Assembly (NCBI GenBank): GCA_051294375.1
Contig: JBJCIZ010000016.1
Span: forward strand, 1-64,000
Source: Paraspadella gotoi
Lineage: Eukaryota > Animalia > Chaetognatha
Length of the DNA: 64,000 nt
Direction: 5' to 3'
Every line of letters begins with the position of its first letter. The stretch's first letter is position 1. The notes below the pieces were generated by a model, which saw nothing but the letters and a program-made list of their open reading frames with translations, made no database searches and had not been told where the DNA came from. A program made the translations under genes and the position numbers. Positions 3,896 to 51,440 of the stretch are shown piece by piece.

Positions 3896-3907
3896 TCAAA
3901 AAAATTA

Positions 3908-10711: not shown

Positions 10712-11025
10712 AATTCAATCATAAAAATATGATTCGAATCATAAAATATGATTCGAATCATAAAAATATGATTCGATTCATTAAAATATATTCGATCATT
10801 AAAAATTGTTCGAATCAAATATTCAATTATAAAAATATGATTCGAATTATAAAAATATTATTCGAATTATAATAAATTATGATTCAAATCATAAAAATAT
10901 TGATTCAAATCAATAAATATGATTCAAATCAGATAAATATGATTCAAATCATAAAATATGATTCAAATCATAAAAAATATGATTCAAATCATATAAATAT
11001 GATTCAAATCATAAAAATATGATTC
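10712..11025. repeat. 20-bp satellite with palindrome TATGATTCGAATCATA
   Basis: Tandem AAAATATGATTC(G/A)AATCAT units. Cleaner copies at 15770-16052 and 19655-19820. Confidence 0.9.
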
Positions 11026-11352
11026 TGAACCATATTTTTAGATATTTTATAGATAAAAATCATACTTTATGATTCGAATCTTATTTTTATGATGTAAAAC
11101 TAAAAATCATTACAATATATAGTATTAGAAAAATCTCGACTACTATTCCTAAAAATTACCTGATGATTATATGTTTGTAACTTATTGGTTCTATTTCAAA
11201 TTTTTATGATTATAAGCTTTAACTCATTTATGGTCCTATTAATTTGAATCATATCTTTTTTTACTGTATTCAATTCTTATAATATTTATTACTTAACTAA
11301 ATAAATTTGGAATGATATTGCATTTAAAATTCAGAAAGATATATTAATTATT

Positions 11353-13962: not shown

Positions 13963-16422
13963 TAGTTAAATATAAAAAAATATGACTGAGCAAACAATAC
14001 CGGATCTTGCTCACGATTTATTAGCGTTTAGGAGCTGATCGGTTTATTTATAATTATTTATTTAATTACTTTTCATTAAAGCAGCTTAATTGCTGATTAA
14101 TTAATTAATTATTTAATTGTTGTAGTCGCTTCAGCTAGAAAAGTAAAAAAAACGAGAGAAAAGAACGGGCTTTTTTTTAATTCAAACTCATTTCCGGTTG
14201 AAACAATTCCATCAAATTTTGATTCGAACATCAGAAGTATTGGCATTCAAAGCTAAGAGGGATCATACTGCCTGATTTTCTAAAAAAAACCTCCAGGTTA
14301 ACGCCCTGCTCCTTCCTCTCTCCCTATCTTCATACACACATCCTGATCTTCTAAAAAAACTCCAGTTAACGCCCTGCTCCTACCTCTCCTCTCCCTTAAT
14401 TTAAAAAATTTTAAAAATTAAAAAAAACCCATTGATTTTTACCAGCGGTGATAAACCTGGTTAAATGAGTGACAAAGAGAAAAAATGTTTTTGTCCATTT
14501 TTTTCAATAGAAAATACATAAACTATGTTAAAGAAAAATTATATAACATATACATATAAAAAAATGACACTTGTCCTTATACACATATCCAAGGGGAAAC
14601 AATCAGCTTACGATCGCCGTATCATTTTATGCAATTGACCATAGTATAAAAAATGGCAGTTGGTCAAAGAAAAATAATTTATTTTAGAGGAGTAAAGAAA
14701 AAGTCAAAAGAAAAGAAAAAGATTACGAATTTTTAACGATATTTTCTGGTCAAAAGCACGCAAGACCATCTACTTATCAGTTAACCTTACAAAATCGAAA
14801 TCGATGACATGACTTCTTTTGCTTTATCTTGAAATTTTTTTCTCCTGGAGGTCTGAGCACCGTGGGGATGGACAGACATTTCGTTTTTTTTACCGGACAA
14901 GATTGTATTGGTGGACCGACGGACCAACAAAGTGAACAGCCAGAATCTGCTATAAGCAGATCCGGTTTAAAAATATTGATTTGAATTATAAAAACATGAT
15001 TTTAATTAAAAAAATATTAAAACCATAAAATATGATTCTAATTATTTTTACGTTCACATTTTTATGATTCAAATTATATTTTAATCTCTCTCTTTAATAA
15101 GTAAATAATAATAAGTAAATAATAATAAGTAAATGATAATAATAATAATAAATAATAATAATAAATAATAATATTAAATAAATAATTAAACAAAGTAATT
15201 AAACAAAGTAATTAAATAAATTAATAAATAATAAATAATTAATAAATTAATAAATAAAAGTAAATGAATAAATAATTATTTAAATGAATAAATAAATAGA
15301 GAGAGAAGAACGGGAAGAAACAACAATAGTAACATGATAACAGACGCGACTGCGATCCCTAATATGAGTTCAATCCTTGGACAATTTTTTTTTAATAAAA
15401 ACGAAAAGAAAGCAAGATAGAGAGAGAGAGAGAGAGAGAGCGAAGCCAAATCGTTTTCGGATGAATCAGCAGAATCAGAGACTGGGGAAAAGAGAGAGAG
15501 CGAGCTACATATAATTAAAAAGAGAAAAGAGAGAGAAGGAGACACAAAAATAAAAATCCAAAGGCAGCAGCAGAATCATCAGGAGAAAAGAGAGAAAAAG
15601 AAAGAAAACCCCTGCAGAGCTTAAATCGCAGCTGCAGATTCTTTTTTTTCCCTTTGAATCAATAATAGTAAATTTATATAACAATAATATTAAAAATAAA
15701 ATTAATATAATATTAATATTGGTAATAGTATTAACAAGAATTTATTATAATATTAAAAATAAAAATAGAATTCAAATCATAAAAATATGATTCGAATCAT
15801 AAAAATATGATTCGAATCATAAAAATATGATTCGAATCATAAAAATATGATTCGAATCATAAAAATATGATTCGAATTATAAAAATATTATTCGAATTAT
15901 AAAAATATGATTCAAATCATAAAAATATGATTCAAATCATATAAATATGATTCAAATCAGATAAATATGATTCAAATCATAAAAATATGATTCAAATCAT
16001 AAAAATATGATTCAAATCATATAAATATGATTCAAATCATAAAAATATGATTCTGACCATATTTTTAGATATTTTATAGATAAAAATCATACTTTTATGA
16101 TTCGAATCTTATTTTTATGATGTAAAACTAAAAATCATTACAATATATAGTATTAGAAAATCTCGACTACTATTCCTAAAAATACCTATGATTATATGTT
16201 TGTAATTATTGGTTCTATTTCAAATTTTTATGATTATAAGCTTTAACTCATTTATGGTCCTATAATTTGAATCATATCTTTTTTTACTGTATTCAATTCT
16301 TATAATATTTTATACTTAACTAAATAAATTTTTGGAATGATATTGCATTTAAAATTCAGAAAGATAATATTAATTATTTAATTATGACATCAATACCTAT
16401 TTCTATTACCCCAAATACATTA

Positions 16423-19400: not shown

Positions 19401-21775
19401 TTTGCTTTATCTTGAAATTTTTTTCTCCTGGAGGTCTGAGGCACCGTGGGGATGGACAGACATCGTTTTTTTACCGACAAGATTGTATTGGTGGACCGAC
19501 GGACCAACAAAGTGAACAGCCAGAATCTGCTATAAGCAGATCCGGTTAAAAATATGATTTGAATTATAAAAACATGATTTTAATAAAAAAATATAAAACC
19601 ATAAAAATATGATTCTAATTATTTTACGATTCACATTTTTATGATTCAAATTATATTTTTATGATTCGAATCATAAAAATATGATTCGAATCATAAAAAT
19701 ATGATTCGAATCATAAAAATATGATTTGAATCATAAAATTATGATTCGAATCATAAAATTTAGATTCGAATCATAAAATTTAGATTCGAATCATAAAATT
19801 TAGATTCGAATCATAAAAATATCTTTCACACCTTTTATCTCAAATTTTAATATATTAACAATTACTTTGATATCGTTTGAATATATAGAATAATAATTTA
19901 TAAGGAATAATTATATTTTTTCTTTTCAAACCTGTTCAAAATATATTTCTGAAACAAATTTATATCATTATTATAGGTCTTTTTTAAGTAATTTTTTTCA
20001 CATTTTTTCAGAACAAATCATATCTTAATCGTTCAAATGATATCATGATTCAAATCATATTTTCTCGTTTTGAACCATATTTTGCTATTTTTTAACCAAA
20101 ATATTGTTAAAATATATAATATTATACTTAATTAAAACTAAAGTTATCTATATTATCATTCCTCCAAATACTTTTTAATATTTTTAAACAGAAATTTGAA
20201 CATCAATATAAGCACTGACCTGTGGATGAAATAAATTTTGCTTTTTTGATTTTGGCTCTGTCAGCCGTATCCAAACGAGAAAACGAGAAATCATCAACTA
20301 AAAAAAATTTAAGTTTAAAAACAAAATTTCAATAACTAATTATTAATATTTTTTACTATTTATATGGTTAACACTATTCATTTATATAACATAACATAAT
20401 TTAACTTAATAACACTATTTTCTTACCTTTCGAAAGAGGGATGTGTGGGAGGAAACTACGAGAAATCGTCTCATATTTGTCCGCCCACTTTGAACTTAGG
20501 AGAGTTGCTAAAGCGGTGTTTAATGCAACGTCTCCCTGTATACGGAAGTCGTTCCAATTCTTGATGACTCGTTTAAGCGTCGTAAGAGATCTAAAAATTA
20601 AAAAAAATAAATTCAAAATATTAAAAATATCAACATATGGAGAATCCAGTATAACCATTCTCACCCCATACATTGTAGGGCCTACAATATTCACAAATAT
20701 GCTTAAAGTAAACAATATTAAAATATAACTATTGCAATCTTAAAATATATTGTACTAAGTAAAAAAGTTTTTCTTTAACAAAAACTATTAACTTAATAAA
20801 ATTCTTATTATATATTTGAATATTTCAAAAATTTTTTTTTAAAGATATGGTAAAACAAATAATCTTTTAAATTTCATACCATATTTATTAACTTACTCTT
20901 CAAGTTTCCGCAAAATTGTTTCTTGTTCCGTTGGTAAAAATTTAGTGGACGACTTGGGGCAAGGCAATCGTGAAAATAACTTTATTGTTTCTTCAGCTTG
21001 TGAAGATATGGTTCCCAGCAGCTGACGAATCATCCTCCCGTCACTCTCCTTCTGCTTTAACATCTTGTCTGAAAATGTATGAATAGTTTATTAGAAGAAT
21101 ATATGTAAATCTTTTTAGGATATTAATAAAAAAATTTAAAATAATGTGTAAAAAATTAAATATCAAAGTTACTTTCATAAAAAATAATTTGGGTTAATTT
21201 TACTTTCGCTGATCGGTGTAAGGGGGGGTTTAGGTTTAAGGTTAACAGGGTTTAGGTATAGGTAATTAGGTAATAATTTTTAATTTTTTTTTAAATAAGT
21301 ATTTTTAAGTTATTTTTCAAAAGACGCCAAAAATCTGGTCGGCGAAAGTAAAATTTTACCAATAATTTTTCCTAAATGGGGAGATAGAAGAGAGCAAAAA
21401 AGAAGGTGAAAGAATTTTTATAAATTTTACAAAAAATTATTATTCACTGAAGTACATAAAATAAAAATAAAATAATAATTTGTCCATTTTTAAGAAAATT
21501 AGAAAAACCAATATAAGTATATCAAAATTTTAAATTCAGTCAGTGAAGGTGTCATGCTACAATCCTACTACACAACAAAAATAAAGTTTATAACATAATG
21601 CTATTTTTATACAAAACTTACTGCGACATTCCAGCATTGAGTAATGAGCCTTTTTGAATCTCGGAGCGCATTCGGATTTGTTGTGAAAGTTTGAACATGC
21701 CGACTTAGCTTCATCCACCAAATTGTTTGCATGGACATTAAAATCCTTCTTTAAATTGTCAAAAATTGTCTCCAT
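16423..21775 (-). CDS. ~519-aa AT-hook / acidic low-complexity protein (7 exons: 21775-21622, 21068-20897, 20590-20427, 20297-20220, 18104-18031, 17958-17859, 17240-16423)
   Basis: All six introns are GT-AG and phase-consistent, total 1560 nt. AT-hook PKRRGRPRKRP, (EEALAGG)n repeat, SIM-like DEDNLVICED and DEDIIFL. No recognisable catalytic domain. Confidence 0.7.
18215..18550 (+). mobile_element. PLE pLTR with hammerhead, intronic
   Basis: GACG-CTGAAGA-A-GGCTT-GCAACTA-AAGCC-GAAA-CATG-TC-CGTT at 18409-18451, with stem I GACG/CGTT. Confidence 0.8.
21191..21360. mobile_element. Short TIR MITE (Merlin/hAT-like) containing degenerate TTAGGG-like repeats
   Basis: TIR GGTTAATTTTACTTTCGC / GCGAAAGTAAAATTTTACC, 8-bp TSD AATAATTT. 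Related copies at ~50015-50195 and ~60645-60787. Confidence 0.75.
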
Positions 21776-25790: not shown

Positions 25791-25960
25791 TTAGTCGGAT
25801 CTGCTTATCAGCAGATTCCGACTCTATAATCCACCTTGTCGGTCCACCCCCACGATCTTGTTGGTCATTCACTTAGATCATGTCAGAACATCAAATTATG
25901 ATAAATTATGCCAAAAAAAGTGATGTCCCTCCATCCGTCAGTCCACTAGGGTGGAGTGAT
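25780..25960. mobile_element. DINE-1/HINE (Helentron)-like dispersed repeat
   Basis: Hairpin GTCGGATCTGCTTATCAGCAGATTCCGAC plus a GTCC/GTCT microsatellite tract. Copies at ~14860-14968(-), ~19440-19547(-), ~28340-29100 and ~31745-32510. Confidence 0.5.
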
Positions 25961-26864
25961 GAAAAGATTGAGCGATGGAACATATTTTTTGCTGCCTTTG
26001 TATATGTAATAAAAAATAATTAAGATATTTTTCAAAAAAAATTGCATAACAGTATCATTAATTGAATTTTCTTTATAGTAATATCTTATAAAATAATAAA
26101 ATTTTTAAATCATATTTTTTTAATTTAAGAACGTTGGATTCGCCGGAAAAAACTGAAAAACTTATGTAATATATGTTACATTATATTTTTAGGTTAAAGC
26201 TGCGAAAAATGACCAAAATGTTTCAACATATAATAGTTTCTACTACAAAATGTGAAAAAGTGGAGAAATTGACCTTTTTTTAGCATTTTTGAGGCTGAAG
26301 ACATTGAAATTTTTAATAACATACTTTATATTTTTGATCTAACTTTTTATGAAGAATCAGAATCTTTAATAAAAATTTTTTAAAAAAAGTGTGTGATTGA
26401 GCGGAATATAAAGTTTCAATGCAATCGTGCAAGAGGAAAAAAGTTTAACATTGAAAAAGAATTTATATAAATGTGAACATTGTTCTATTTAAAGTTCCTT
26501 TTTCTCCCTCTCTTAGTTAAAATGATTGATTGGCTGATTGATCAGTTGATTGCAAGATTGATATATTCTTTTATTGATTTATTAAGAAATCCGTTATAAT
26601 TTTTATTTGTCTCTCTTTCTCCCTCTCTCTCTCTCGCTATTGCTCTCTCGAATCAATCAATTAACAAAAGTTGCATTCCTGCATCTTAAATTGTGAACTG
26701 ACGAATGTTAATTATAGATTTTTAATTAAAAATTTGAAATTAAAAAAATTGATAATTTCACATTTTAAATAGAAAAAATAAAATAAAAAGAAGTCTGATG
26801 ATAAAACTTTTAGCTATAATTATGTTCGTTTATAAAAATAAATCGTGATTTATACTTTTATATC

Positions 26865-26911
26865 AGGCACCAGTCTCTTCGGAGGCGTGGGTTTGAATCT
26901 AACTGCTGTCA
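26865..26911 (+). pseudogene. 3' half of a tRNA-Leu gene
   Basis: AGGCACCAGTCTCTTCGGAGGCGTGGGTTTGAATCTAACTGCTGTCA shows the class II variable arm and T-arm typical of eukaryotic tRNA-Leu. The 5' half is absent and the T-arm is mutated. Confidence 0.75.
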
Positions 26912-27516: not shown

Positions 27517-31180
<3,664 letters not shown>

Positions 31181-32925
31181 TATATAACTAAACAAAATTT
31201 TTTAAAGAAATATAAAAAAATTTGAATTCAATCCAAAACTGGTCAAAAAGAACAAATATATATAACATATATAATATATATAACATGATCCAAGCTCTAT
31301 TATGAGCGCAAAATATTATAAGTATCATATAATATTTGTTGTAATATTTATGATATTATTATAAATAACAAAAAAAAGGTAAACGGACAGCAAAAAAATT
31401 ATTCTAGTTCAATAATGAATTTTAATACACAAAAAAATTTGCATTACAGTTTTATTTTATAAAATTGTGATAATGTAAGCAAATGTTTAGGAGAAAAATA
31501 ATAACCCAAGCTTTATGAAATTAGTACAACCAATAGAAAAATTATCCATTCGGTCATTCTCAGGCTTTGGTGGTTTAAGGCCTCCATCACTTTAAAAAGA
31601 TAATGACATAGCAGGTTCCTGCAAGCTTACAATACTCTCTCATAGTCTTGTTTATTCACTCCCAGAGTACCTCGCTTCCCTATAGATTATAAATTTATTC
31701 CCTATATATTTCTGAAAAATTTTAAGTTTTTTATAACTAATTAATTTTTATTCGGATCTGCTTATCAGCAGATTCTGACTATAATTCACTTTGTCGGTCC
31801 GTCGGTCCAACCCCAAAATCAAATTTTTTTTATCATATCAGAACATTGAATTATAATAAATTATGCAAAAAAATTATGTCTGTCTGTCCATCCTCCCTTA
31901 GCATTAAACTCCAATTACTCGTGTTTGGTTGGATGGAATGGAATGATATTTTGTGTGTGGGTAGGAGAAAGTGTGTGATTGAGCTGGATATAAATTTTCA
32001 ATGGAATCGTGCTAGTAGAAGTGAGTTTAAATAGAAAAAACAAAAGTCATATTTACTTGAAGTATTTTTACTTACATTTATTCATAATTATTTTATTTAT
32101 TAAAAATTGGATAGATGAAATGAAATTTAGTGTGTGGGTAAGAAAGTATGTGGATTAAGCTGAATATTAATTTTTGATGGAATTGTATGAGTGGAAAAAA
32201 GTTGAATATAAAACTAAAAGACAATTATTTGAATATTTTAAAGTTTTTCTTCTCTCTATCTCTCTGATTGATTGATTGATCGATTGTTTGACCAAATTAT
32301 GCCAGTTGACAAAATTATGCCCGTTGACCAAATTATGCCCGTTGACCAAGTTAAGCGCAGCTACTCAAAATGTTTTTTTATAGATTTATTAAGAAGTCAG
32401 TTATGATTTGTTATGTTACAATTTGTTATGATCTGTTAAGATCACAAATTGAAAGTCAGAAAAAATTACTGTGACTTATCAAGCAGATCCGATGTTTGCT
32501 CAAACTTATTTATTATTTATTTATAAATAAAAATTAAAATATTTTTTCAACAGTTATTTATTATTATTAAAAACAGATTCATAGAGCGCATAAAAGTAAG
32601 CTTTAAAATTCTAATTTATTTTATATTTTAATATTAAGCCATTTAAAAATATAAAAAAAATCTAATTATAATACAATCATATTTATGATTTTTTAGTTCT
32701 TATCTACAAAAAATTTTAAATTGATTAAATTCAATTAAAAAAATTTAATTAGCTTATTATTGTTAGCTAAAAGCAAAACATTTTTTTAACAAATTTAATA
32801 ATTAATTTTAATTTTTTAATTATTCTTAATTGTAACTAGAATACAAAACATAAGCACATTAAAACATAAAATTGGTATTAATAAAGAATATACAGCTTTT
32901 AACCAAACTTTCTTGCATGTTCAAT

Positions 32926-35900
32926 TTAACAATCTTCATCACAATCACGAAATTGAGAAACAGTATTAGTCTCATTTTTTCTTTGCTGAGCTTTGATACG
33001 ATTGCGACATTTGTTTAAGCGTACATTTCTTTGACGAGCTGTTTCTTTAGCTTGTGGTACAATGTATTCTACATTATAATCTTCACACAAAGTTTTAATT
33101 TTTAATTCTGTTTCGTCCATTTTTCTAACTCTCTTTTTTTTCATAAAATAATTAATACGGTCAGTAAATGACTTTTGACCACTTCCAAACTGTTGAGAAG
33201 ACTTAAAATCAGATAAATCATCATCATTATCAACAGAATCAAACTCTTCAGAATGTGTAGTGTCACCGTGCTCTTGCACGTTTTTTAATTCTCGTTTTCT
33301 TTTATTAGGTCTTGAAATAAGAGAATTAACAAAAACTCCTGCAGTTTTTGAAATATCTGATGTAGTTAACCTATAACTTTCTTCCGCGCAGATTTCAGAG
33401 TGCTGCATGTGTTCAGTAACTGAATGCATCGTTAGATTAGCTTTGGCAGCATGTGGATCAATTAGGCAAGCTGCTAATTGCCTTTCTTTAGAGACAGTCT
33501 CAACATAAATTCTCCAAAATGAGGGTGAAAAAGTAATGCAGAGTGCTTCACAAGCAGTTTTCAAAGACATTTCTAATTCTTTCCTCAAAGGAGCTTTCCC
33601 AACACTATTGACAAAAAAAACCGATTCATTTATGATCAAACCATTTCGTTTCAATTTCATTTTCAGATTTTGCAACCCAATTAAATAATTTTTTAAAAAT
33701 GAAAGTTTAAAAACTGGCCATATTATGCATGTTGCGCGAAAATGACTGGTAACTTCTTTTTTCCTAGGCCGGATAAAATGGGTATTTTTATTTTGCAGTT
33801 GACCAAAAACTACAATGAATTCATCATCAACGGAAGTTTTTTGTTCAAAATCTTCAATTGCTTTCATGATATCTGGAACACTGATAGAGGTACTGTCAGA
33901 AGATCTTGAGACATTAAAAAATAGAAAAATTAAATAAACAACTCCTACAACTAATGTGACGAACGGCTTGTAATCATCCAAATCATCAAAATTTTGATTG
34001 GCCCAAATTCTACCAACTTCATCGAACTCATCGCCATGAAATAACAAAGAATATTCTTCAGTAGAGAAATTTTCTATTTGTTGGGCTCTACTGTTTTTTT
34101 TTGCTGCATTATGATCAGCGTAAAACTGGGTTATGGGATGAAAAAGAGTTTTCAACTCAATGAAATTTTCTTCAAATTTACTAGATTTTGGTAACCATTT
34201 ACCAGCCATTAAAAAAGTATTAAATTTTCTTAGACAAGATATGTTGGAAAAATAGCTATGCTTCTTTCTACCATTTTTGACAAGGACAAGTAAAAATTCA
34301 GAAATCATCGATAAATCTTCAACTGCTGATAAAATATCCATTGTCTGATGATTGGCAAAGCCTTTTGATGTACAAACAAAAGATAAAAAACGAGCAACAT
34401 TATTTATTGTGTAGTTTGTTCTGACTTGTATATGAGCAATTTTTTTAGCATCTGTAATCAGGTTACTTTGATTGACACGCCAATATTGTTTTAAATGATA
34501 AGAAAAAGATACTGGAAAACCGAGAGCTGATTGATATCTGAGATCCAAAATCAATTCTTTTAGACTTTCATCTATTTTTAGTATTTGATTAATCCCCTTC
34601 TCAATAGGTTTATATTGAGTTCCGGACACCTCATCCCAAAGCTCATCAAGCTCATCAATATTATTTGGTCTAAAAAATCCACTTAATTCATTAAAGTTAA
34701 TATCTTGGTCTCTATTAACTTCTTCTCGAACTATCACTTCTTTAAGAAGTTGATTTAAAGCTTCATTACAAACGGGATTAGTCATTTTCATTTCTTTGAT
34801 TTCAGAATAAACAGTTTGGGCTTGTTCCTCAATAGGAAAACTTGTGTTCATCTCTTTATTCATTGGTAATGTTTTTTGCAATTTTTTATTAGTGCCACTA
34901 ATGTTATTTTGTGAAACAATTTTGGGGGAAGAATTCGCATCTAGTTTAGCAATATCAAAATCTAAAGAAGTAAAAGAACCATCGCCAAAAACAGTAATAT
35001 TTTCAATTATTATTTCATCAGAAGAATCATCCTTTTCTTCTGCTTGATTCTTTTTGGTTTTTTTGACAATTAACCTTTTTTGAGAGGAATGTGAAGCAAG
35101 CAAATCTTTAGAAGAACAAGATGCAATTGCTACAGAATCACTAACAACAAAATCATTGTTGTTTTTTTCAATATTTGAGTCAAGTGAAGAACAAACTTTA
35201 GAATGAGTTTCGGAAGTGAAAAAATCTGATGTGTTTGGCAAGTCATGTTCCAAAACTGTTTCAAGGACAGTTTCAGTCAAATTATCGAAATTTAATGTTT
35301 TTGTACTAACTTGGGGATTTTTTAAATCAACAGCATGTAAAATTTGTGAGGAACAATTTTCTTTTATTCCATCTATTATAATTGATAGTTTCTCTTGTGA
35401 TACACGTTTACTTTTGGCAGTAATTTTGGGACATTCGATTAAGTTTTTTAATCGCACATTGAAAAACGTTACAAATTTATTTCCCATCTTTGGTGGACAT
35501 TCAAGAGAATTTTTAATTTCACCAACAGATTTGTCATAAATGTCTTCTTTTCCAATTATTGTTATCGGAAATAATGAATCAAAGTGAGAACGATATTCAA
35601 TTGCAGAATCATCACCTCCGGTTTGGAGCAAAAATATGGGATGTAATGCTTTTTTCTCCAAACATTGATGATATATTTCGTGCAAAGATACTTCGTTGGT
35701 GACCGATATTCTTATGATTATAAAACGAACCATAAGCACAATGCTAAGAGCAACGAAATCTAATTCTGATATTTCTAAAGCAGAAAATTTTTCCACATAG
35801 TTCTTTTTAATATCAATCCCTGCAACACCCAAATGTGGATAATCTACAAGCAGTTGCGACTCAATCATACCGTTCCAATGACCCAAATTAAACGTTTTGA

Positions 35901-38900
35901 CTGCTAATCTTAAATCAATGACCCTTTGAATGTAGAACTCTGAATCTGGTTCGATCTGAGGAGTAAAATGTTTTATAATTGAATGATAACCACAATGTCC
36001 ATCTTTATTGCAAGAAAGAATTACAAATGGAAATTTTATATCATTTATTATTAACAGATTAACATTTTTATAACAGAATAATGATCTTTCATTCAGAGAT
36101 TCCATGCGCTCTTTATCTTTTAAAATTGTAGTTATTATGTCCTGACAATTTTGTATAATGTTAGGACTTAGGCTCAATGTGTCTATATTTTCTAAATCCT
36201 TTGGAGTAGAGGTTGGAATATGTTTAATTGGAGTTAGTGTCAAATCATCAGAAGGATCTGGAAATGAGCGAATCCCATCAATTTCATATTTTTCAACCAA
36301 CCTTTTCAAATAAGTTTTAAAAGTGCTTTTAATTATTTTTTTTGGAACTAAATTTATGCTAGTTAAAATTTGATTGCCATCAGATATTAATAATTTAGTG
36401 ACCTCACTGTTGCAGGTTAGTTCAATTTCGTCATCAACTTTGCTAAATTTCAGAACTGCAGGGTTTTCCTTTAGCAATAATTTTTTTGCAATTGACCAAT
36501 GGCGGTTTAAAAAAAATTCTTTTAAAAAATTGCTTTCTCGTAATGACTTTGCTAAAAAAATCTTTTCATAGTGTGATTGAAAAGCAGTTGTTGCATGTAA
36601 AATTGGTTCATTTTCATCATCAGTACTACCTTTGCCTACTGGTTCTACTGTTTCTACGTTACTTTCATTCACGGGATTGGGTTGACTATCTTCTTCAACA
36701 TCAGAATCAACCAACATTTCTCCAGATTTTGATGTTGGAAGTTTAAATGGATATTGAAATTGGCCCAAAACATTTACCATTTTAACTTTACGACTATCCA
36801 TTTCATTGTCACATAGATGCTTTTGCAAATACTCTTTTGCAAACAATTTTTCCATACCACAAGTAATAGAGATTGAATTGGATTCGACAAAGCTGCATTA
36901 AAAAATAAGCCCCAGTAAACAAAATATTTTTAAAAAACGAAAATAATAATCTATGATTATAAATTTATGATTCAAAAGATACTATTCTATAATTTGAAAA
37001 TGAAATAATAATCATATTTTTAAGCTTTAATTCTATTTTTATAATTAATTCAAAAATGAAATTTTATGACGGAAAATATAACAATTTTAAATTCTCCCCC
37101 AAAAAATATATTATCATTTTAATAACATTATTATGATTCCAAATATAACACATACAATCTCAAAAATATAATTCGATGATATTAAAAATTTAATATAGTA
37201 AATTCTAAATTATGATTTTAAAAATATGATTTTATGATTTAAAAAAAATGATTTTATGATTTAAAAAAAATGATTTTATGATTTGAAATAAGAGAATAAT
37301 ATTTAATAGGTTTTCAAAGCATAAAATCATATTTTTCAAAGCATAAAATCATATTTTTCAAAGCATAAAATCATATTTTTCAAATCAAAATCATATTTTT
37401 CAAATCAAAATCATATTTTTCAAATCAAAATCATATTTTTCAAATCAAAATCATATTTTTCAATAACATTATATTTATTAACATAGAATTGTATTTGTGT
37501 TATCATGAAAAGTTTTTTGTAAGATATTATATTGATATGTTGATATTACATAGTCATATATTTTTATTATTAATTAGTACTATTTAATGTTGGTCTCAAA
37601 GAATCAAAACGGTTTTTTGAAAGTTACAATTATATTTTTAAAATCAATCATATTTTTTTAATAAGAGAATAATATTAATATGTTTTAAAATAATAAATCA
37701 TTTTTAAAGTCATATTTTTAAAATTATAGAATCATATTTTTAAAATTATAGAGTCATATTTTTATAATTATAAAATCATATTTTTCAAATCATAAAATCA
37801 TATTTTTCAAATCATAAAATCATATTTTTCAATAACAAAATTATAAAAAATAGAATTGTATTTATGTTATCATGAAAAGTTTTTTTTAAGATATTATATT
37901 TTTTTCAAGCCACATGATATTACATAGTCAAATATTTTTGTTATTAAATAGTACTATTTAACGTTTACCTCAAAGAATCAAAACGGGTTTTTGAAGCTTA
38001 CAATTATATTTTTCAAATCATAAAATCGTATTTTTCAAATCGTATTTTTCAAATCGTATTTTNNNNNNNNNNNNNNNNNNNNNNNNNCAAAAAAACCGTT
38101 TTGATTTTTTGAACAGATATTAAATAGCACTATTTAATTAAAAAATATATGACTATGTAATATCATTTTGGTTTCAAAAAAATATAATATTTACAAAAAA
38201 CTTTTCATGATAACAAAATACAATTCTATGTTAATAATTATTATGTTATTGAAAATATGATTTTATGATTTGAAAAATATGATTTTGATTTGAAAAATAT
38301 GATTTTGATTTGAAAAATATGATTTTATAATTTTTACAATATGATTTTATAATTTGAAAAATATGATTTTATAATTTTTATATTATGATTTTATAATTTT
38401 AAAAATATGATTTTATGTTTTAAAAATATGATTTTTAAAAATATAATTATAACTTCAGAAAAACCGTTTTGATTCTTTTGAGACCAACATTAAATAGTAC
38501 TATTTAATAATAAAATATGACTATGTAATATTATTTTGGCTTCAAAAAAATATAATATCTTACAAAAAAGTTTTAATTATAACATAAATACAATTCTATA
38601 TTAATAATTAAAATGTTATTGAAAATCTGATTTTATGATTAAAAATATTATTTGAAAAATATGATTTTATAATTTGAAAAAATATGATTTTATAATTTGA
38701 AAAATATGATTTATAATTTGAAAAATATGATTTTATAATTTGAAAAATATGATTTTATAATTTGAAAATATGATTTTATAATTTTGAAAAATATGATTTT
38801 ATAATTTGAAATATATTTTATATATTTATAGTTTTAAAAATAGGATTTTATAATTTGAAAAAATATGGTTTTTATGATTTGAAAAATATGATTTTATGAA

Positions 38901-41900
38901 TATTAAAACCTATTAAATAGTATTCTTTTATTTAAAAAATATTGTGATTTAAAAAATATGATTATGATTTTAAAAGTATAATTTATAACCTTCAAAAAAC
39001 CGTTTTGATTCCTTGAAACCAACATTAAATAGCACTATTTAATAATAAAAATATATGATTATGTAATATCATTTGGTTTCAAGAAAATATAATATCTTAA
39101 AAAAAACCTTTCATGAAAACATAAATACAATTCTATGTTAATATTTATAATGTTATTAAAAAATATGAATTTATGATTTGAAAAATATGATTTTATGATT
39201 GAAAACCTATTAAATATTTATTCTCTTATTAAATGAATATGATTATGATTTTAAAAATATAATTGTAATCTTCAAAAAACCGTTTTGATTCTTTGAGACC
39301 AACATTAAATAATACTATTTAATTATAAAAATATATTATTATGTAATATCATTTTGGCTTCAAAAAATATAATATCTTTATAATATCTTTCATGATAACA
39401 TAAATACAATTCTATGTTAATAATTATAATGTTATTGAAAAATATAATTTTATGATTTGAAAAATAGGATTTTATGATTTGAAAATAGGATTTTATGATT
39501 TGAAAAAATAGGGAGTGGTCTTTTCATACAATTGAAACATTCTTTGAAATATTATACCACTTCATTGATAGGGAAGCCAGGTTCACTGGAGTGAATAAAT
39601 GAGACTGTGAAAGAGTCTTGATTGAAAGCTTGCAGAAACCTGCTATGTTATTATCTTGTAAGTGTGATGGAGGCCTTAAACCACCAAAGCCTGTCCAAAG
39701 TCAGGGACAAGATAGCTTATTTATTAAATGAATGGATAATTTTTATATTTGGTTGTACCAATTTCATAGGATTTTATGATTTGAAAAATAGGATTTTATG
39801 ATTTGAAAAATAGGATTTTATGATTTGAAAATATGATTTTATGATTTGAAAAATATGATTTTATGATTTGAAAAATATGATTTTATGATTTGAAAAATAT
39901 GATTTTTTATGATATTAAAACCTATTAAATAATATTTTTTTATTAAAAAAATATTGTGATTTAAAAATATATGATTATGATCTTTAAAAAGTATAATGTG
40001 TAACTTCAATAAAATAAAACCCGTTTTGGTTCCTTGAAACCAACATTAAATAGCACTATTTAATAATAAAAATATATGATTATGTAATATCATTTTGGTT
40101 TCAAGAAAATATAATATCTTAAAAAAAACCTTTCATGAAAACATAAATACAATTCTATGTTAATATTTATAATGTTATTAAAAATATGAATTTATGATTT
40201 GAAAAATATGATTTATGATTTGAAAAATAGGATTTTATGATTTGAAAAATATGATTTTTTTATGATATTAAAACCTATTAATAATATCTTTTTAAAAAAA
40301 TATTGTGATTTAAAAAATATGATTATGATTTTAAAAGTATAATTGTAAACCTTCAAAAAACCGTTTTGGTTCCTTGAAACCAACATTAAATAGCACTGTT
40401 TAATTATAAAAATATATTATTATGTAATATCATTTTGGCCTCAAAAAATATAATATCTTTATAATATCTTTCATGATGACATAAATACAATTCTATGTTA
40501 ATAATTATAATGTTATTGAAAAATACGATTTTATGATTTGAAAGATAGGATTTTATGATTTGAAAATATGATTTTTTATTTGAAAACCTAATAAATATTA
40601 TTCTTTTATTAAAAAAATATGATTATGATTTTAAAAATAAAATTGTAACATTCAAAAAACCGTTTTATTCTTTGAGACCAACATTAAATAATACCATTTA
40701 ATAGTAAAAATATATGATTATGTAATATTATTTTGGCCTCAAAAAAATATATCCTACAAAAACTTTTCATGATAGCATAAAATACAATTCTATGTTAATA
40801 ATTATAATGTTATTGAAAAATATGATTTTATGATTTGAAAATTACGATTTTATGATTTAAAAAATATGATTTTATGATTTGAAAAATATGATTTGAAAAA
40901 TATGATTTTATGATTTGAAAAATATGATTTTATGATTTGAAAAATATGATTTTATGATTTGAAAAATATGATTTTATGATTTGAAAAATATGATTTTATG
41001 ATTTGAAAAATATGATTTTATGATTTGAAAAATATGATTTAAAGTTATGATTTTGTAATTTTAAGATGATTTTATCATTTAAGACTTATTAAATATTATT
41101 CTCTATTAAAAAAATATGATTATGATTTTAAAAATATAATTGTAACCTTCAAAAAAACCGTTTTGATTCTTTGAGACCAACGTTAAATAGTACTATTTAA
41201 TAATAAAAATATGACTATGTAATATCATTTTGGCTTCAAAAAAATATATGTTACAAAAAATTTTTATGATAACATAAATACAATTCTATGATAATAATTA
41301 TAATGTAATTGAAAATTATGATTTTATGATTTGAAGAATATGATTTTATGATTTGAAAAATATGATTTTATGATTTCAAAATTATGATTTTATGATTTGA
41401 AAAATATGATTGATTTTATGATTTGAAAAATATGATTTTATGATTGAAAAATATGATTTTATGATTTGAAAAAATATGATTTTATGATTTGAAAAATATG
41501 ATTTTATGATTTGAAAAATGATGATTTTTAATCGATTTGAAAAATATTACGATTTGAAAAATACGATTTGAAAAATACGATTTGAAAAATACGATTGTCA
41601 AATCATAAAATCATATTTTTCAAATCATAAAATCATAATTTTGAAATCATAAAATCATATTTTTCAAATCATAAAATCATATTCTTCAAATCATAAAATC
41701 ATAATTTTCAATTACATTATAATTATTATCATAGAATTGTATTTATGTTATCATAAAAAATTTTTTGTAACATATATTTTTTTGAAGCCAAAATGATATT
41801 ACATAGTCATATTTTTATTATTAAATAGTACTATTTAACGTTGGTCTCAAAGAATCAAAACGGTTTTTTGAAGGTTACAATTATATTTTTAAAATCATAA

Positions 41901-44900
41901 TCATATTTTTTTAATAAGAGAATAATATTTAATAAGTCTTAAAATGATAAAATCATTCTTAAAATTACAAAATCATAACTTTAAAATCATATTTTTCAAA
42001 TCATAAAATCATATTTTTCAAATCATAAAATCATATTTTTCAAATCATAAAATCATATTTTTCAAATCATAAAATCATATTTTTCAAATCATAAAATCAT
42101 ATTTTTCAAATCATAAAATCATATTTTTCAAATCATAAAATCATATTTTTCAAATCATATTTTTCAAATCATAAAATCATATTTTTTAAATCATAAAATC
42201 GTAATTTTCAAATCATAAAATCATATTTTTCAATAACATTATAATTATTAACATAGAATTGTATTTATGCTATCATGAAAAGTTTTTGTAGGATATATTT
42301 TTTTGAGGCCAAAATAATATTACATAATCATATATTTTTACTATTAAATGGTATTATTTAATGTTGGTCTCAAAGAATAAAAACGGTTTTTTGAATGTTA
42401 CAATTTTATTTTTAAAATCATAATCATATTTTTTTAATAAAAGAATAATATTTATTAGGTTTTCAAATAAAAAATCATATTTTTCAAATCATAAAATCCT
42501 ATCTTTCAAATCATAAAATCGTATTTTTCAATAACATTATAATTATTAACATAGAATTGTATTTATGTCATCATGAAAGATATTATAAAGATATTATATT
42601 TTTTGAGGCCAAAATGATATTACATAATAATATATTTTTATAATTAAACAGTGCTATTTAATGTTGGTTTCAAGGAACCAAAACGGTTTTTTGAAGGTTA
42701 CAATTATACTTTTAAAATCATAATCATATTTTTTAAATCACAATATTTTTTTAAAAAGATATTATTAATAGGTTTTAATATCATAAAAAAATCATATTTT
42801 TCAAATCATAAAATCCTATTTTTCAAATCATAAATCATATTTTTCAAATCATAAATTCATATTTTTAATAACATTATAAATATTAACATAGAATTGTATT
42901 TATGTTTTCATGAAAGGTTTTTTTTAAGATATTATATTTTCTTGAAACCAAAATGATATTACATAATCATATATTTTTATTATTAAATAGTGCTATTTAA
43001 TGTTGGTTTCAAGGAACCAAAACGGTCTTTATTGAAGTTACAGATTATACTTTTAAAGATCATAATCATATATTTTTAAATCACAATATTTTTTTAATAA
43101 AAAAATATTATTTAATAGGTTTTAATATCATAAAAAAATCATATTTTTCAAATCATAAAATCATATTTTTCAAATCATAAAATCATATTTTTCAAATCAT
43201 AAAATCATATTTTTCAAATCATAAAATCCTATTTTTCAAATCATAAAATCCTATTTTTCAAATCATAAAATCCTATGAAATTGGTACAACCAAATATAAA
43301 AATTATCCATTCATTTAATAAATAAGCTATCTTGTCCCTGACTTTGGACAGGCTTTGGTGGTTTAAGGCCTCCATCACACTTACAAGATAATAACATAGC
43401 AGGTTTCTGCAAGCTTTCAATCAAGACTCTTTCACAGTCTCATTTATTCACTCCCAGTGAACCTGGCTTCCCTATCAATGAAGTGGTATAATATTTCAAA
43501 GAATGTTTCAATTGTATGAAAAGACCACTCCCTATTTTTCAAAATCATAAAATCCTATTTTTCAAATCATAAAATCCTATTTTTCAAATCATAAAATTAT
43601 ATTTTTCCATAACATTATAATTATTAACATAGAATTGTATTTATGTTATCATGAAAGATATTATAAAGATATTATATTTTTTGAAGCCAAAATGATATTA
43701 CATAATAATATATTTTTATAATTAAATAGTATTATTTAATGTTGGTCTCAAAGAATCAAAACGGTTTTTTGAAGATTACAATTATATTTTTAAAATCATA
43801 ATCATATTCATTTAATAAGAGAATAATATTTAATAGGTTTTCAAATCATAAAATCATATTTTTCAAATCATAAATTCATATTTTTTAATAACATTATAAA
43901 TATTAACATAGAATTGTATTTATGTTTTCATGAAAGGTTTTTTTTAAGATATTATATTTTCTTGAAACCAAAATGATATTACATAATCATATATTTTTAT
44001 TATTAAATAGTGCTATTTAATGTTGGTTTCAAGGAATCAAACGGTTTTTTGAAGGTTATAATTATACTTTTAAAATCATAATCATATTTTTTAAATCACA
44101 ATATTTTTTTAATAAAAGAATACTATTTAATAGGTTTTAATATCATAAAATCATATTTTTCAAATCATAAAACCATATTTTTCAAATTATAAAATCCTAT
44201 TTTTAAAACTATAAAAATATATTTTTAAAATCATATTTTTCAAATTATAAAATCATATTTTTCAAATTATAAAATCATATTTTTCAAATTATAAAATCAT
44301 ATTTTTCAAATTATAAAATCATATTTTTCAAATTATAAAATCATATTTTTCAAATTATAAAATCATATTTTTCAAATTATAAAATCATATTTTTCAAATA
44401 ATATTTTTTAAATCATAAAATCAGATTTTTCAATAACATTTTAATTATTAATATAGAATTGTATTTATGTTATAATTAAAACTTTTTTGTAAGATATTAT
44501 ATTTTTTTGAAGCCAAAATAATATTACATAGTCATATTTTTATTATTAAATAGTACTATTTAATGTTGGTCTCAAAGAATCAAAACGGTTTTCTGAAGTT
44601 ATAATTATATTTTTAAAATCATATTTTTAAAACATAAAATCATATTTTTAAAATTATAAAATCATAATATAAAAATTATAAAATCATATTTTTCAAATTA
44701 TAAAATCATATTGTAAAAATTATAAAATCATATTTTTCAAATCAAAATCATATTTTTCAAATCAAAATCATATTTTTCAAATCATAAAATCATATTTTTC
44801 AATAACATAATAATTATTAACATAGAATTGTATTTTTGTTATCATGAAAAGTTTTTTGTAAAATATTATATTTTTTTGAAACCAAAATGATATTACATAG

Positions 44901-47900
44901 TCATATATTTTTATTATTAAATAGTGCTATTTAATATTGGTCTCAAAAAATCAAAACGGTTTTTTGAAGGTTACAATCATATTTTTAAAATCATGATCAT
45001 ATTTTTTTAAAAAAAGAATAATATTTAATAGGTTTTCAAATCATAAAATCATATATTTCAAATCAGTATTTTTCAAATCATAAAATCATATTTTTTCAAA
45101 ATCATAAAATATCATATTTTTCAAAATCATAAAATCATATTTTTCAAATCATAAAATCCATATTTTCAAATCATAAAATCACTATTTTTCAAAATCATAA
45201 CAATCATATTTTTCAAATCATAAAATCATATTTTTCAAATCATAAATCATATTTTTCAAATAATATAAATCATATTTTTCCAAATCATAAAATCATATTT
45301 TTTCAAATCAATAAAAATCAATCTATTTTCAAATCATAAAATCATATTTTTCAACATCATAAAATCATATTTTTCAAATCATAAATATCAATATTTTTTT
45401 CAAATATCAATAAAATCATATTTTTCAAATCAATTAAAATCATATTTCTCAAATCATAAAATACATATTCTTTTACAAATCATAAAATCATACTTTTTAC
45501 AACATCATAAAAATCATAATTTTTTCAAGGAATCAACTACAATCATATTTCTTCAAATCATATTTTTCAAATCATAAAATCATATTTTTCAAGTAATAAA
45601 ATCATATTTTTCAAATAATAAAATCATATTTCTCAAATCATAAAATCATATTTTTTTAATAACATTATAATTATTAACATAAAATTTTATTTATATTATC
45701 ATAAAAAGTTTTTTGTAAGATATTATATTTTTTGAAGCCAAAATGATATTACATAATTATATATTTTTATTATTAAATAATTTTATTTAATGTTAGTCTC
45801 ATAGAATCAAAATGGTTTTTTGAAGGTTAATTATATTTTTAAAATCAATCATATTTTTTTAAGAGAATAATATTTAATAGGCTCTAAAATATTTTTAAAA
45901 TCATTAAATCATATTCTTAAAATTATAAAATCATTTTTAAAATCATAAAATCTAGAACAAAGTTTTGAAGTGAAACGGACATGTTTCGACTCACATACGA
46001 GTCTTCTTCAGCGCCAATTAAATTTGAGGAGGTTTTTGTGCATAAAGAAAGAGAGAGACAGAGCAAAGTTTCCAACACAGAGTGAGAGAAAGGATAGTGA
46101 TCAATTTTTTTTATTAAGGACAGGTGGAGGTGAGGACAAAGATAGTTTGTAAAAAGATATTGAAATGGAGAGAGAGAGATATTTTTTAATAAGAGAACAA
46201 TATTAAATAGGTTTTAAAATCATAAAATTATATTAAAATCATATTTTTAAAATCATAAAATCATATTTTTAAAATCATAAAATCATATTTTTAAAATCAT
46301 AAAATCATATTTTTAAAATCATAAAATCATATTTTTAAAATCATAAATAGCACTATTTAATAATAAAAATATATGAATATGTAATATCATTTTAGCTTNN
46401 NNNNNNNNAATATCTTACAAAAAACTTTTCATGATAACATAAATACAATTCTATATTAATAATTATGTTTTTGAAAAATATGATTTTATGATTTTAAAAA
46501 TATGATTTTAAAAATATGATTTTATGATTTTAAAAATATGATTTTATTACTTTAAAAATATTTTATTATTTTCAAAAAATGATTTTATTATTTTCAAAAA
46601 ATGATTTTATTATTTTCAAAAAATGATTTTATTATTTTAAAAATATTTGATTATTTTAAAAATATTTTATTATTTTAAAACCTATTAAATATTATTCTTT
46701 TATTAAAAAAATATGATTATGATTTTAAAAATATAATTCTAACCTTCAAAAAACCGTTTTGATTCCTTGAAACCAACATTAAATAGCACTATTTAACAAT
46801 AAAAATATATGACTATGTAATATCATTTTAGCTTTTAAAAAATATAATATTATACAAAAAACTTTTCATGATAACATGAATACAATTTTATGTTAATAAT
46901 TATAATGTTATAATTTTACTACTTTAAAATCCTAAAATAAAAAATATATATGCAGATTTTATAAAATTTAAAAATTCAGACTACATCTTTGAAAACTGTT
47001 TCTAAAACCTACTGAAGCGACTTAAAAATAATTTATTGAATGAAACATACCCGATTTCTTCATTGACATGATCATAAAACATCTGTTCAGATATTGTATT
47101 GATGAGAGGGATAATCGCATTGATCTGTTGAGGTGTCAATTTATGGGCTTTCTTCAGATGAAATTTAATTTTGTCAAAACCACCTAATCCATTAAGCAGT
47201 GCCATTTCAGGTGGATGCATCCACTTCTCAGAGCTATAAAAAAGTTTTAAACAATTTAAGAATTAAAAATTCATAATTTTATAAATTTGAAAAAAATATT
47301 ATTTTATCAACAGAGTAAAACTTACTAACTGCATGGGCCATTTTTACATCCAAAGGGACAAAACATCAATCTAGATCGGTTGCGTGCAATGATGCGATCT
47401 TGGAGGGGACCATGGATAACTCGGTAAAGAACAGATGCAGGAGTAGAAGAGCTGCTTGCACCGGTTTGATTTAAATTTGCTTTCCCACGCCCTGACGATT
47501 CTTCCCTATAAAAATATAGTTATATACTCTAAAACTTAAAGTATTATTAACTTGATAATTATTTCATTTAAAAATGAAGCTTTTACCTTTTCCAACCATA
47601 TTGTAGACATTTGAGAACAACATCTTCAGTTCTTTTAGATTCAAGGTTGAAAAAAAATAACTTTGTCTTTTGTAAGATCTCAAACGATTGTCCTGTAAAA
47701 TAAGAATAATATTAATCTTTAAAATACCTTAAAACAAATTCATATTACAACTAACCTTGTTCATTCAAGCAATTTTTGATGCGGACACACTCGCCCGTAA
47801 TCAAAGGAGGACCATTGTCCACATCAATTTGAAGGTGATGAGATATTTTGCCCTTTGTTCTGGAAGCTTGATCGCATAGTTCTTCTATGGCCGAGTAGTT

Positions 47901-48711: not shown

Positions 48712-50869
48712 ATTCACATGATTATAGTCTACTGCGTTTGAAGAATTGAATTAACTGACAAAAAAAATCATGTAAATACATCAAATGATTCAATGACTGA
48801 AAAATAATATAACACAAATTTTTAGCAAGCTTTGAATCCTGATAGTTATTATTTAATTTAAATATTTTTGAATATTGAATTAGATTCAGTAATAATTGAA
48901 CAAAATATGATAAAAAAGTTTGAAATAAAACAATTTAATAAAATAAATAATTTAGCAATTTTCATAAAGAAATATTTTATTTTGAAGAAGTTTTCCAATA
49001 AAGGAATTTACACAATAACAATTTATGAAAATATGATTATTATTATTATATATACATTAAACATTTTTACATGCTAGTAAAAAAAATACAAAATTAACTA
49101 TATTAGTACTATCACTAAATAGCTCCCTTAAAAAATTTGATTAATTTCAATGACAAAGCTTTCCTTCATACACACGGCTTTAAATCCTTAACATGTGTCA
49201 GCGGAGACAAAAATAAGTTTACAAAATTACTAAAGCAATTTTAACCATCTAGCGAGAACACAAAATCCGTTATATCAAACTATAAACAGGGTCTTCGAGA
49301 TATTTTTTTAAAAAATTTGGGCCTGTAATACTTGAGAATGGTTAAATGTAGATTAAAACCGAAAACATTTATAGAAACTTTATGATCTTAGTTTTCAATG
49401 GATGCCCAAAAAACTCAAAGGATATTGCGAAGTTAAAGACTTTTGTTGTTAAGATATGTACCAACTAAATGTAGCCATTAATAATGGAATTCGTAAGATC
49501 TTTGGCTGACATAGATGGGAAAGCATCACCTTATAGAATGTTTTGGTTACCCTGACATTTATCATACTTTTTAAAAAAGGTCATGAACGATTAACGAAAA
49601 ATATTTTTTTTATTTCCTTGAAAATATAGAAATAATCTCGTAGATTAGTTTTCCTTCACGTTACCTTTTAATATAATATTATTTGTTTGGTTTATTATGT
49701 TGCTGATGTATGCATTGTATCATTCTGACAAGAAATAAAATTCTCATTAATAGAATAATGGAAATATGGACTTTTATACGCGACACGTCAGTTTTTGTTA
49801 CGCAAAAGTGGTTTATTTGCTCGACCTAAGAAAGCTTTGATGCTTTACAGTTTGCTTAAAATTGATAAATAAAAATAAATACAGTTTGGAAATCTGCTTG
49901 GTCTTAACTTTCAATCGATACCAAATGCTAAAAAATTGATAGGGGAAGGGGAAGCAATATAATTTTTATCCGGATGTATCATTTTTTTAAAGTATGAAAC
50001 CATAAGGCGTAACGCCAAAAGTTTACTTTCGCCTATTGGGTTAGGGGGGTTTAGGGTTAAGAATGGGTTAGGGGGGTTTAGGGTTAAAAGAGTTCATGGT
50101 TAGGGTAATTAGGTAATAATTTTTTTAAAAATAATTATTTTTAGATTATTTTTCAAAAGACGCCAATCCCCGGAAAGCAAAGTTAAATTTTACCCTAGTA
50201 AGTTACTTCGGAACTTACTTAATATAATATAGTAAATCATAAAGCCCTCAAAAAATTGAATCTGCTCGATTTTACTTTTATAATCATACCAATTTTCAAA
50301 AGATTAGTTTATTTTTTACTGCTTCAAATGAATTTTTTAAAAATTCCTAAATAGCTAGAAGACCTGGTAAGTATGCTATTACTACCAAAAACTTCTTAAA
50401 AAACTGAAAGATCATAAAATGTTAATGTCAGACAAGTAGTCAAGAAAAAATAAGTAAAATCTAACTGGTCAAACCTGAAATAATACCTATCACGCGGTCT
50501 CGTTAAAGAAAATATGAAATAAAAAAGGAAAAAAAATATTGTAGTTAATAAAAAATTTAAATATAATTAAAATTAGACTAAAACAAAATTAAAATTAATT
50601 GTTTTGAACGTATTATCATTGAGTTTTAACTCGGGCTAACTACGTAAAATAAGTCACTTGGAATTCGTAGTAAATGGCGCGTCGCCGGTCAAAGAGGCTC
50701 AGTAGTTGATGACAAAGTCTCGACAAATTCAGACGTCGATGAGAAGAGCCGGCCGACGGTCCTCCACTGTGAAGCCCAGCACTTGTGATGAGAATGAAAT
50801 GCAAATTTGTCATTGAGGACGGATTCACGAGATATTGTGTTCCATTTCCCATTGCAGGGGCGGCATCGA

Positions 50870-51440
50870 CCACAGTTGCTGGAATGTATGGGATCCAATA
50901 AAGGGCCTAAATTTAAGAATAAATTAGTAGGAGTGTTGCGGAAGATTTATGAGACCGAAAAAGAATTTTCCATAACTTACTACCCTCAAAAACAAGGTCA
51001 GGTAGAGAGAAAGAATAGAACAATTTTTAGTATGTTGGCTAAACATGAGAAGGCCAGGACAAAGGATAAGGGCAGCATGAGCAATTGAGCATTGATTGCG
51101 CTGGTATTAGGGGGTGCTCTTAAACCGATGAGGTTATATGAGAAAGAAATGGAAAACAAGTTTGACAATATGAGGAGAATGAGAAATGAACAAATGAAAA
51201 AATATCAGGAGAAAATGGTTCGGCAGAGTGTTAAAGGTAAACGTGTTAAAATTTTTCAACAAGGGCAAAAAGACCTAAAATTATTGCCGCGAGAGAAAAG
51301 AGAAACTAATTATCCATTCTTATGGTGAAAAAGGAATTACGTCCTCACGGAGAAGGGAGAGGTAATGCATAGGTGATAGTAAATGATCGCGGGTTTGAAA
51401 AGATTCGCCCTGGATGTGATTTGAAAAAGTTCTTTGAACC
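50870..51440 (+). pseudogene. Degenerate Ty3/Gypsy integrase fragment
   Basis: SNKGPKFKNKL..ITYYPQKQGQVERKNRTI matches the rve core (SDxGxxF..TxYHPQxNGxVERxNRT), with the catalytic D lost. Downstream GPY/F-region-like remnants. Confidence 0.75.

Follow-up and report, generated by a model that had tools for sequence, protein, structure and literature searches.

A large intron-less gene of the chaetognath Paraspadella gotoi predicted to encode an OTU-type protease fused to a divergent tyrosine recombinase

Overview of the OTU-YR gene

The first 64,000 nucleotides of contig JBJCIZ010000016.1 of Paraspadella gotoi (assembly GCA_051294375.1; this whole stretch is referred to as the window) contain a large gene, here termed OTU-YR, whose product combines a predicted OTU-fold cysteine protease with a predicted tyrosine recombinase (YR). 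The open reading frame (ORF; 32926..36855, minus strand) is intron-less and the longest in the window, and encodes a protein of 1,309 amino acid (aa) residues (P0001) that comprises, in order, an N-terminal motif, a small alpha/beta domain, the OTU domain, a linker, the YR, and a basic C-terminal block. The frame is open from stop to stop between 32926 and 36897 with its first ATG at 36855 and zero internal stops, and is overlapped by only two short ORFs; the window is 28.6% GC, and at this base composition a run of 1,309 codons would stay open by chance with a probability of about 1e-48. An initial annotation of this DNA had described an uninterrupted exon beginning at 36892. The uninterrupted frame is confirmed, and 36892, which is the base after a poly-T/CAG stretch and lies 37 nt upstream of the ATG, is a candidate exon start only, as this stretch looks like a splice acceptor. 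The ATG at 36855 is a plausible start because three relatives of the protein (P0007, P0015 and P0020) begin about 10 residues ahead of the N-terminal motif that they share with P0001. That such an open frame reflects recent activity or selection, as was also proposed, follows from the frame itself, which does not tell the one from the other.

Profile searches of Pfam, PHROGs and NCBIfam with P0001 gave no credible family match for either domain, and a single-sequence search of the PDB gave no match. The domain assignments are described below together with structure models, fold comparisons and alignments of relatives.

The OTU domain

An OTU fold is predicted for residues ∼262–432 (35560..36072, minus strand) from fold searches, motifs and conservation. 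The two motifs pointed out in the initial annotation, DGHC and HFD, are at aa 285 (D285-G-H-C288) and aa 424 (H424-F-D426), such that both the DGxC cysteine loop and the HxD/N part of the triad are present. The predicted triad consists of C288 (35992–35994), H424 (35584–35586) and D426, with an oxyanion loop at D285-G286. In the OTU topology the Cys opens a helix and the His opens a strand, and in the AlphaFold model C288 is at the start of a helix and H424 at the start of a strand; the mean predicted local distance difference test score (pLDDT) for this part of the protein is 70.5, and mostly 80–96 over the domain.

Comparison of the model with known structures places it in the OTU family, as the initial annotation had anticipated. 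Foldseek returned 11 matches at E≤0.001, the best being a nairovirus vOTU (E 2.6e-4, probability 1.00), and all of the matches listed are OTUs. In a wide structure search against 48,161 chains the best match is OTUD1 (Z 12.0, root-mean-square deviation [rmsd] 2.4 Å, 132 residues aligned), the top 33 rows are of the OTU family, and the best unrelated protein has a Z of 4.1. At the sequence level, a 14-sequence profile had PDB matches to vOTUs of nairoviruses (E 0.002), ESM Atlas neighbours of this part carry PF02338, and there are sub-threshold Pfam hints among the relatives to Peptidase_C65 (E 0.0055) and OTU (E 0.052). The catalytic residues are also kept in most of the 13 relatives aligned, counting those that cover each site: D285 in 8/10, C288 in 9/10, H424 in 6/7 and D426 in 5/7.

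The tyrosine recombinase domain

Residues ∼762–1190 are predicted to adopt a Cre/Xer-type YR fold, with a helical, SAM-like core-binding domain (aa ∼762–929; 34069..34572, minus strand) followed by a catalytic domain (aa ∼930–1190; 33286..34068, minus strand). The ordered residues that the initial annotation had listed are readily located in the latter, which contains R984, D987, K1023, S1112 at the position of the second active-site His (His-II), R1115, H1152 and the putative nucleophile Y1161 (33373–33375); of the seven active-site positions that PMC2943603 tabulates for YRs, P0001 holds six. The conservation of these residues among the 29 relatives aligned, again counting those that cover each site, is extensive: R984 10/11, D987 10/11 (with Glu in the eleventh), K1023 10/10, R1115 14/15, H1152 12/13 and Y1161 13/13.

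The fold comparisons agree with this assignment. The model of aa 695–1210, built from 30 sequences, has a mean pLDDT of 77.7, and a Foldseek search of the PDB gave XerD, an integrase, XerA and Cre in its top six rows, with an E of only 0.045. In a second structure comparison the first 35 rows are YR-family proteins (Cre Z 9.1, rmsd 7.0, 253 residues aligned), and in an independent wide search against the same number of chains as above YRs or their core-binding domains take the first 17 places (Z 9.0), the best unrelated protein having a Z of 4.9. Although the whole-chain rmsds are high, the catalytic domain alone matches at 3.5–4.7 Å over 130–152 residues, and residues ∼762–929 match isolated integrase core-binding domains with Z scores of 6.1–7.1 and rmsds of 2.8–3.0 (3nrw, 2oxo). 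Topoisomerase IB (TopIB) structures score lower in the wide search (Z 4.6–6.0, versus 7–9 for YRs), and protelomerases are not among the best 50 rows listed in the YR fold searches. There is also a sub-threshold Pfam hint to Phage_int_SAM_1 among the relatives (E 0.027–0.073).

The most unusual feature of the active site is box II, which in P0001 is S1112-F-W-R1115. The replacement of the first His of HxxR by Ser was noted in the initial annotation and is present, and it is not peculiar to this copy: in 14 relatives the position is occupied by Arg (7), Cys (2, one of which, in P0023, sits in an out-of-register tail), Gln (2), Thr (1), Lys (1) and His (1). Judged from this alignment, the missing box-II His is a trait of the family and not damage to the P0001 copy. 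His-II is described as 87% conserved among YRs and not essential in Cre, which tolerates most substitutions of its His289; its loss is a feature of TopIB (PMC2943603), and Starship captains are likewise described as variable at this position (PMC10104507). Ser at His-II is therefore compatible with an active enzyme, and the preference for Arg in the family suggests a TopIB-like local geometry.

Relatives of the OTU-YR protein

An exhaustive phmmer search with aa 255–1200 against 1.84 billion representative sequences identified 43 matches at E≤0.001, nine of them at ≤1e-30. Word-index protein searches gave no match, and are uninformative given the 43 relatives found exhaustively. The relatives are mostly short metagenome fragments (35 of the 43 are shorter than 300 aa), and 15 of the 43 have unalignable ends inside a domain. 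The origins of 20 were looked up, of which 18 are from ENA, one from JGI/IMG and one from 'merc'; the only name among them is 'hypothetical protein'. The family is diverse, with identities of 18–58% among 12 sequences in the region from box II to the Tyr.

The OTU-YR fusion is not a one-off, because P0006 (1,417 aa) has four blocks collinear with those of P0001, namely the N-terminal motif, the small domain, the OTU domain and the beginning of the YR, with E-values of 6e-9, 6e-7, 1e-31 and 9e-21, respectively, and identities of 28–35%. P0007, P0015 and P0020 extend from the N-terminus through the OTU domain and then stop on short contigs. Pattern scans of viral contigs with a YR or an OTU, using narrow patterns, confirmed no relative, nor did locus scans of JGI metagenomes, prokaryote genomes and phage records, or a RecQ scan of viral contigs.

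Three other parts of P0001 deserve comment. Upstream of the OTU domain is a small conserved alpha/beta domain (aa ∼96–195; 36271..36570, minus strand), modelled with a pLDDT of 83–92 over most of its length and kept in P0006, P0007, P0015 and P0020 at 25–32% identity, for which there is no credible match in the PDB or Pfam. The OTU and YR domains are joined by a weakly conserved, Ser/Thr/Asn-rich linker (aa 481–740; 34636..35415, minus strand; S/T/N/Q 32%); the initial annotation's acidic linker is thus present, and is only mildly acidic (43 D+E versus 29 K+R). Following nuclear localization signal-like KRKR/KKKR motifs is a conserved basic C-terminal block (aa ∼1233–1295; 32971..33159, minus strand), and a phmmer comparison of the C-terminal tail with the retrieved relatives matched P0002 (E 2e-6), P0005 (E 7e-6) and P0003 (E 0.02). 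The N-terminal domain and the C-terminal block, together with the intact gene next door, were missing from the initial annotation.

Genomic surroundings

That neighbouring gene encodes a RecQ helicase, begins 1,748 nt past the OTU-YR stop codon, and is on the same strand, downstream. It has three exons, all on the minus strand: exon 1 (29893..31177, with the ATG at 31177) contains Walker A and DEAH motifs and matches the Pfam DEAD and Helicase_C families, exon 2 (29324..29410) is 87 nt long with GT-AG introns on both sides, and exon 3 (27517..28253) contains the Zn-binding region and the stop. The spliced coding sequence specifies 702 aa with one terminal stop and zero internal stops. Among PDB sequences exon 1 is closest to BLM (E 1.7e-67), followed by RECQ1 (1.3e-58); BLM is a longer protein with a long N-terminus, whereas the RecQ gene here is much shorter and lacks this extension. 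It is possible that it is cargo of a YR element or a host paralogue, and adjacency alone links it to the YR.

The window is rich in tandem and dispersed repeats. A ∼400-bp dispersed repeat, with copies 75–83% alike, lies around and inside the RecQ gene, with copies in the OTU-YR–RecQ spacer (31761–32183) and RecQ intron 2 (28367–28777), and parts downstream (25804–25944 and 26386–26458). Upstream of OTU-YR, a 22-bp satellite starts within ∼350 nt of the ATG and extends to ∼46.9 kb; it is interrupted by an assembly gap (38063–38087). Starting right after this gap, 1.2 kb upstream of the ATG, is an inverted repeat (38090–44965) with 3.4-kb arms that are 97.4% alike (99% in the middle), built of the 22-bp satellite and a 280–340-bp higher-order unit; it may be a fold-back assembly artefact. 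Arrays of 20–22 bp with an ATGATT/AATCAT core common to the upstream satellite are also present at 165–1505, 3901–4136, 10702–11034, 15759–16053 and 19631–19818.

No reverse transcriptase (RT), capsid, polymerase or packaging gene was seen in the window, where the Pfam scan covered seven of the 21 ORFs of at least 150 aa, the remaining 14 being located within or next to arrays of simple repeats. A GC-rich segment at 26864–26909 (plus strand) was considered as the 3′ half of a tRNA-Leu gene and a possible att site, but is unsupported by ARAGORN or Rfam, and any element delimited by such an att site would lie on the side away from the YR, so that this reading was rejected. Elsewhere, a segment at 50798–51328 (plus strand) is what we take, from its motif, to be a broken remnant of a long terminal repeat retrotransposon integrase, and a 130-aa ORF at 6616–7008 (minus strand) with two motifs that we take to be C2H2 zinc-finger-like is presumably a host-gene exon. 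A near-perfect hairpin of ∼95 nt at 62159–62255 has a weak miRNA-model score, below the gathering score, and is probably a palindrome resembling miniature inverted-repeat transposable elements.

Comparison with known systems

Among the closest parallels are the Cryptons, especially CryptonF-2_PS and CryptonS (PMC3212892), in which, as here, a YR is the sole mobilising enzyme, with no RT and no evident terminal inverted repeats. Some Cryptons are also described as encoding a ubiquitin-like protease, C48/Ulp1 (PMC3212892), but the P0001 protease is an OTU, is N-terminal, and is on the same chain as the YR; the P0001 family also differs in lacking His-II. None of GCR1_C (CryptonF), DUF3504 (CryptonA) or DUF3435 (Starship Captain) is listed at E≤1 for P0001 and 29 relatives, in searches where weak matches are filtered, and the linked or overlapping RT/RNase H ORF characteristic of DIRS, Ngaro and VIPER elements was not seen in or near the OTU-YR gene. 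The Pfam profiles and features compared did not place the protein in a named Crypton, Starship or DIRS group.

An OTU fused to a transposase is described for Ginger1 and for animal Helitrons (PMC2836005, PMC6431247), where manipulation of the ubiquitin pathway has been proposed; however, the partner there is a DDE integrase or a Rep-helicase rather than a YR, and the Ginger1 OTU is C-terminal. With Cre, XerA, XerD, XerH and lambda Int (1drg, 1kbu, 4a8e, 1a0p) P0001 shares the core-binding and catalytic fold, as predicted here, as well as Arg-I, Asp-I, Lys, Arg-II, His-III and Tyr with a His-to-Tyr spacing of 9 (PMC2943603). It differs from them in its low identity (∼7–16%), the replacement of His-II, an Arg-II-to-His-III spacing of 37 rather than 22–23, ∼760 extra N-terminal residues, and the conserved C-terminal block.

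Two viral proteins are also similar in type. Phaeovirus EsV-1-213 (PMC2373305, PMC13236599) is a large, divergent, eukaryote-associated YR, with no OTU mentioned in the published descriptions searched, and in the adintovirus OTU-PolB (PMC8502044) a DNA enzyme carries an OTU at its N-terminus; the likeness of P0001 to these is by Atlas feature score only, and no viral genes were seen near it. RecQ helicase as transposon cargo is described for KolobokH (PMC9587614), and a 'helicase' for AcademH (PMC10799480), but those elements use DDE transposases, and the RecQ here is a separate three-exon gene. Additional background is given in PMC13465315, PMC6681497 and PMC11071296. A search of the published literature, which covered sources other than Repbase Reports, subscription journals and supplements (including the additional files of the Crypton paper), turned up neither an OTU-YR fusion nor a YR-RecQ element.

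Origin and possible mobility of the OTU-YR gene

We consider it probable, if by no means certain, that the product of the OTU-YR gene mobilises a Crypton-like family of DNA transposons that has not been described before, its OTU part serving as an accessory deubiquitinase. The intron-less ORF amid repeats, the diversity of the family, and the many short or broken relatives are transposon-like signs. By analogy with other YRs, the core-binding domain would grip the element ends, and Y1161 would form a 3′-phosphotyrosine link, aided by R984, K1023, R1115 and H1152, with the box-II His presumably dispensable, as in TopIB. Two rounds of strand exchange via a Holliday junction could then excise the element as a circle, which would be re-inserted, noting that for Cryptons, too, a circular intermediate has been proposed only as a model (PMC3212892, PMC10104507). 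The tethered OTU may act in cis by taking ubiquitin off the recombinase, which would slow the degradation of the enzyme or the repair of its covalent DNA adducts, or alternatively may act on ubiquitin marks on nearby chromatin or on repair factors. The OTU looks accessory, outside catalysis, because in one relative (P0020) it is dead.

Several observations weigh against this reading. P0020 lacks both the OTU Cys and the OTU His, an OTU and a YR are found on one chain only in the P0006/P0045 cluster, which comes from contigs of 15.4 and 9.6 kb and ends before the catalytic domain, and P0002 and P0003 have a YR and C-terminal block without an OTU, although these ORFs take up most of the 4.2- and 5.9-kb contigs on which they lie and may be 5′-cut. 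The short, broken relatives may be decayed copies, but exons or contig ends would fit as well. The YR model is weakest where it matters most, with a pLDDT of 52–56 around H1152 and Y1161 and below 50 at the K1023 loop, the Foldseek search with it gave zero matches at E≤0.001, and Z scores of 8–9 with rmsds of 7–15 Å are near a level common for helical proteins. Arg, the commonest residue at His-II among the relatives, is reported to inactivate Cre (PMC2943603). At the locus itself, neither element ends nor a target duplication were found, no shared 12-mer (of at least 25% GC) brackets the OTU-YR gene or the gene pair, and a second copy of the gene was not found within the window, while Cryptons are described as having terminal 4–6-bp direct repeats and multiple copies (PMC3212892). 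The diverged repeats beside the gene suggest that the locus is old.

A broader proposal is that OTU-YR and the BLM-like RecQ together make up a single mobile element with two genes that would represent a new class in eukaryotes, which we regard as unlikely. The His-less, topoisomerase-like recombinase would make a Holliday junction that the captured RecQ would branch-migrate or dissolve, while the tethered OTU would shield the covalent protein-DNA complex from ubiquitin-driven repair. Rather improbable, too, is a viral origin, in which an integrase gene from a large DNA virus or a polinton-like virus became endogenised, with the OTU as a viral counter-ubiquitin module. The ESM Atlas neighbours do include an EsV-1-213-like cluster for the YR part (0.96) and a Nucleocytoviricota OTU cluster for the OTU part (0.93), EsV-1-213 being described as a phaeovirus integrase (PMC2373305); a Feldmannia virus protein is among the weak BFVD matches (probability 0.87, E 0.084), and adintovirus PolB provides a precedent for an N-terminal OTU (PMC8502044). 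However, a eukaryote cluster heads the Atlas matches of the YR part (0.98), the neighbouring RecQ gene has spliceosomal introns, and neither the ORFs of the window, scanned to the extent given above, nor the viral-contig scans with their narrow patterns yielded hallmark genes or a confirmed viral relative, a result that a fragment of a larger element could also give.

Domestication, which is well documented for Cryptons (PMC3212892), would mean that OTU-YR descends from such an element but no longer moves, and that the host has retained it beside a resident RecQ, either as a deubiquitinase bound to chromatin or as an enzyme for programmed rearrangements. Two adjoining genes have stayed intact while the repeat copies between them and within RecQ intron 2 diverged to 75–83%, and their codon use is alike (relative synonymous codon usage r 0.92), a weak argument as non-coding controls reach 0.74–0.87. 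We nevertheless judge this distinctly improbable, given that the ORF is intron-less, that the relatives are highly diverse and often broken, with an informative gene name in none of the 20 clusters looked up, and that the intact catalytic set fits poorly with an immobile gene. Less credible still are a role of the OTU as a self-processing protease that frees the recombinase, or of the YR as a topoisomerase or telomere resolvase. A vOTU has been proposed to cut the terminal protein from pPolB (PMC12721341, citing other work), and the linker is long and non-conserved, but P0001 has a single Gly-Gly, which falls within the OTU domain and has no aligned counterpart among the five of P0006. The initial annotation had offered both ubiquitin (or ubiquitin-like) stripping and self-processing as roles for the protease, and we favour the former, with self-processing left without support. 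Loss of His-II is shared with TopIB (PMC2943603), but the YR-specific Asp-I is kept, residues ∼762–929 resemble integrase core-binding domains, and TopIB structures score below YRs. The large inverted repeat upstream of the ATG might suggest a telomere resolvase substrate, but it starts at the assembly gap and is without a clean hairpin centre.

Implications

The OTU-YR gene points to a eukaryotic YR family to which searches of Pfam, PHROGs and NCBIfam gave no name, and one that profile-based repeat annotation would miss. Ubiquitin-type proteases are already known on transposons, with OTUs on Ginger1 (PMC2836005) and Helitrons (PMC6431247), and Ulp1 beside Crypton YRs (PMC3212892), and the P. 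gotoi gene would add YRs to the transposases that have repeatedly been paired with such a protease. It offers an intact, single-chain test case for the long-standing hypothesis (PMC2836005) that mobile elements withstand host repair by altering ubiquitin marks, and the family-wide loss of His-II, mostly to the Arg that inactivates Cre, may serve as a natural probe of YR versus TopIB catalysis.

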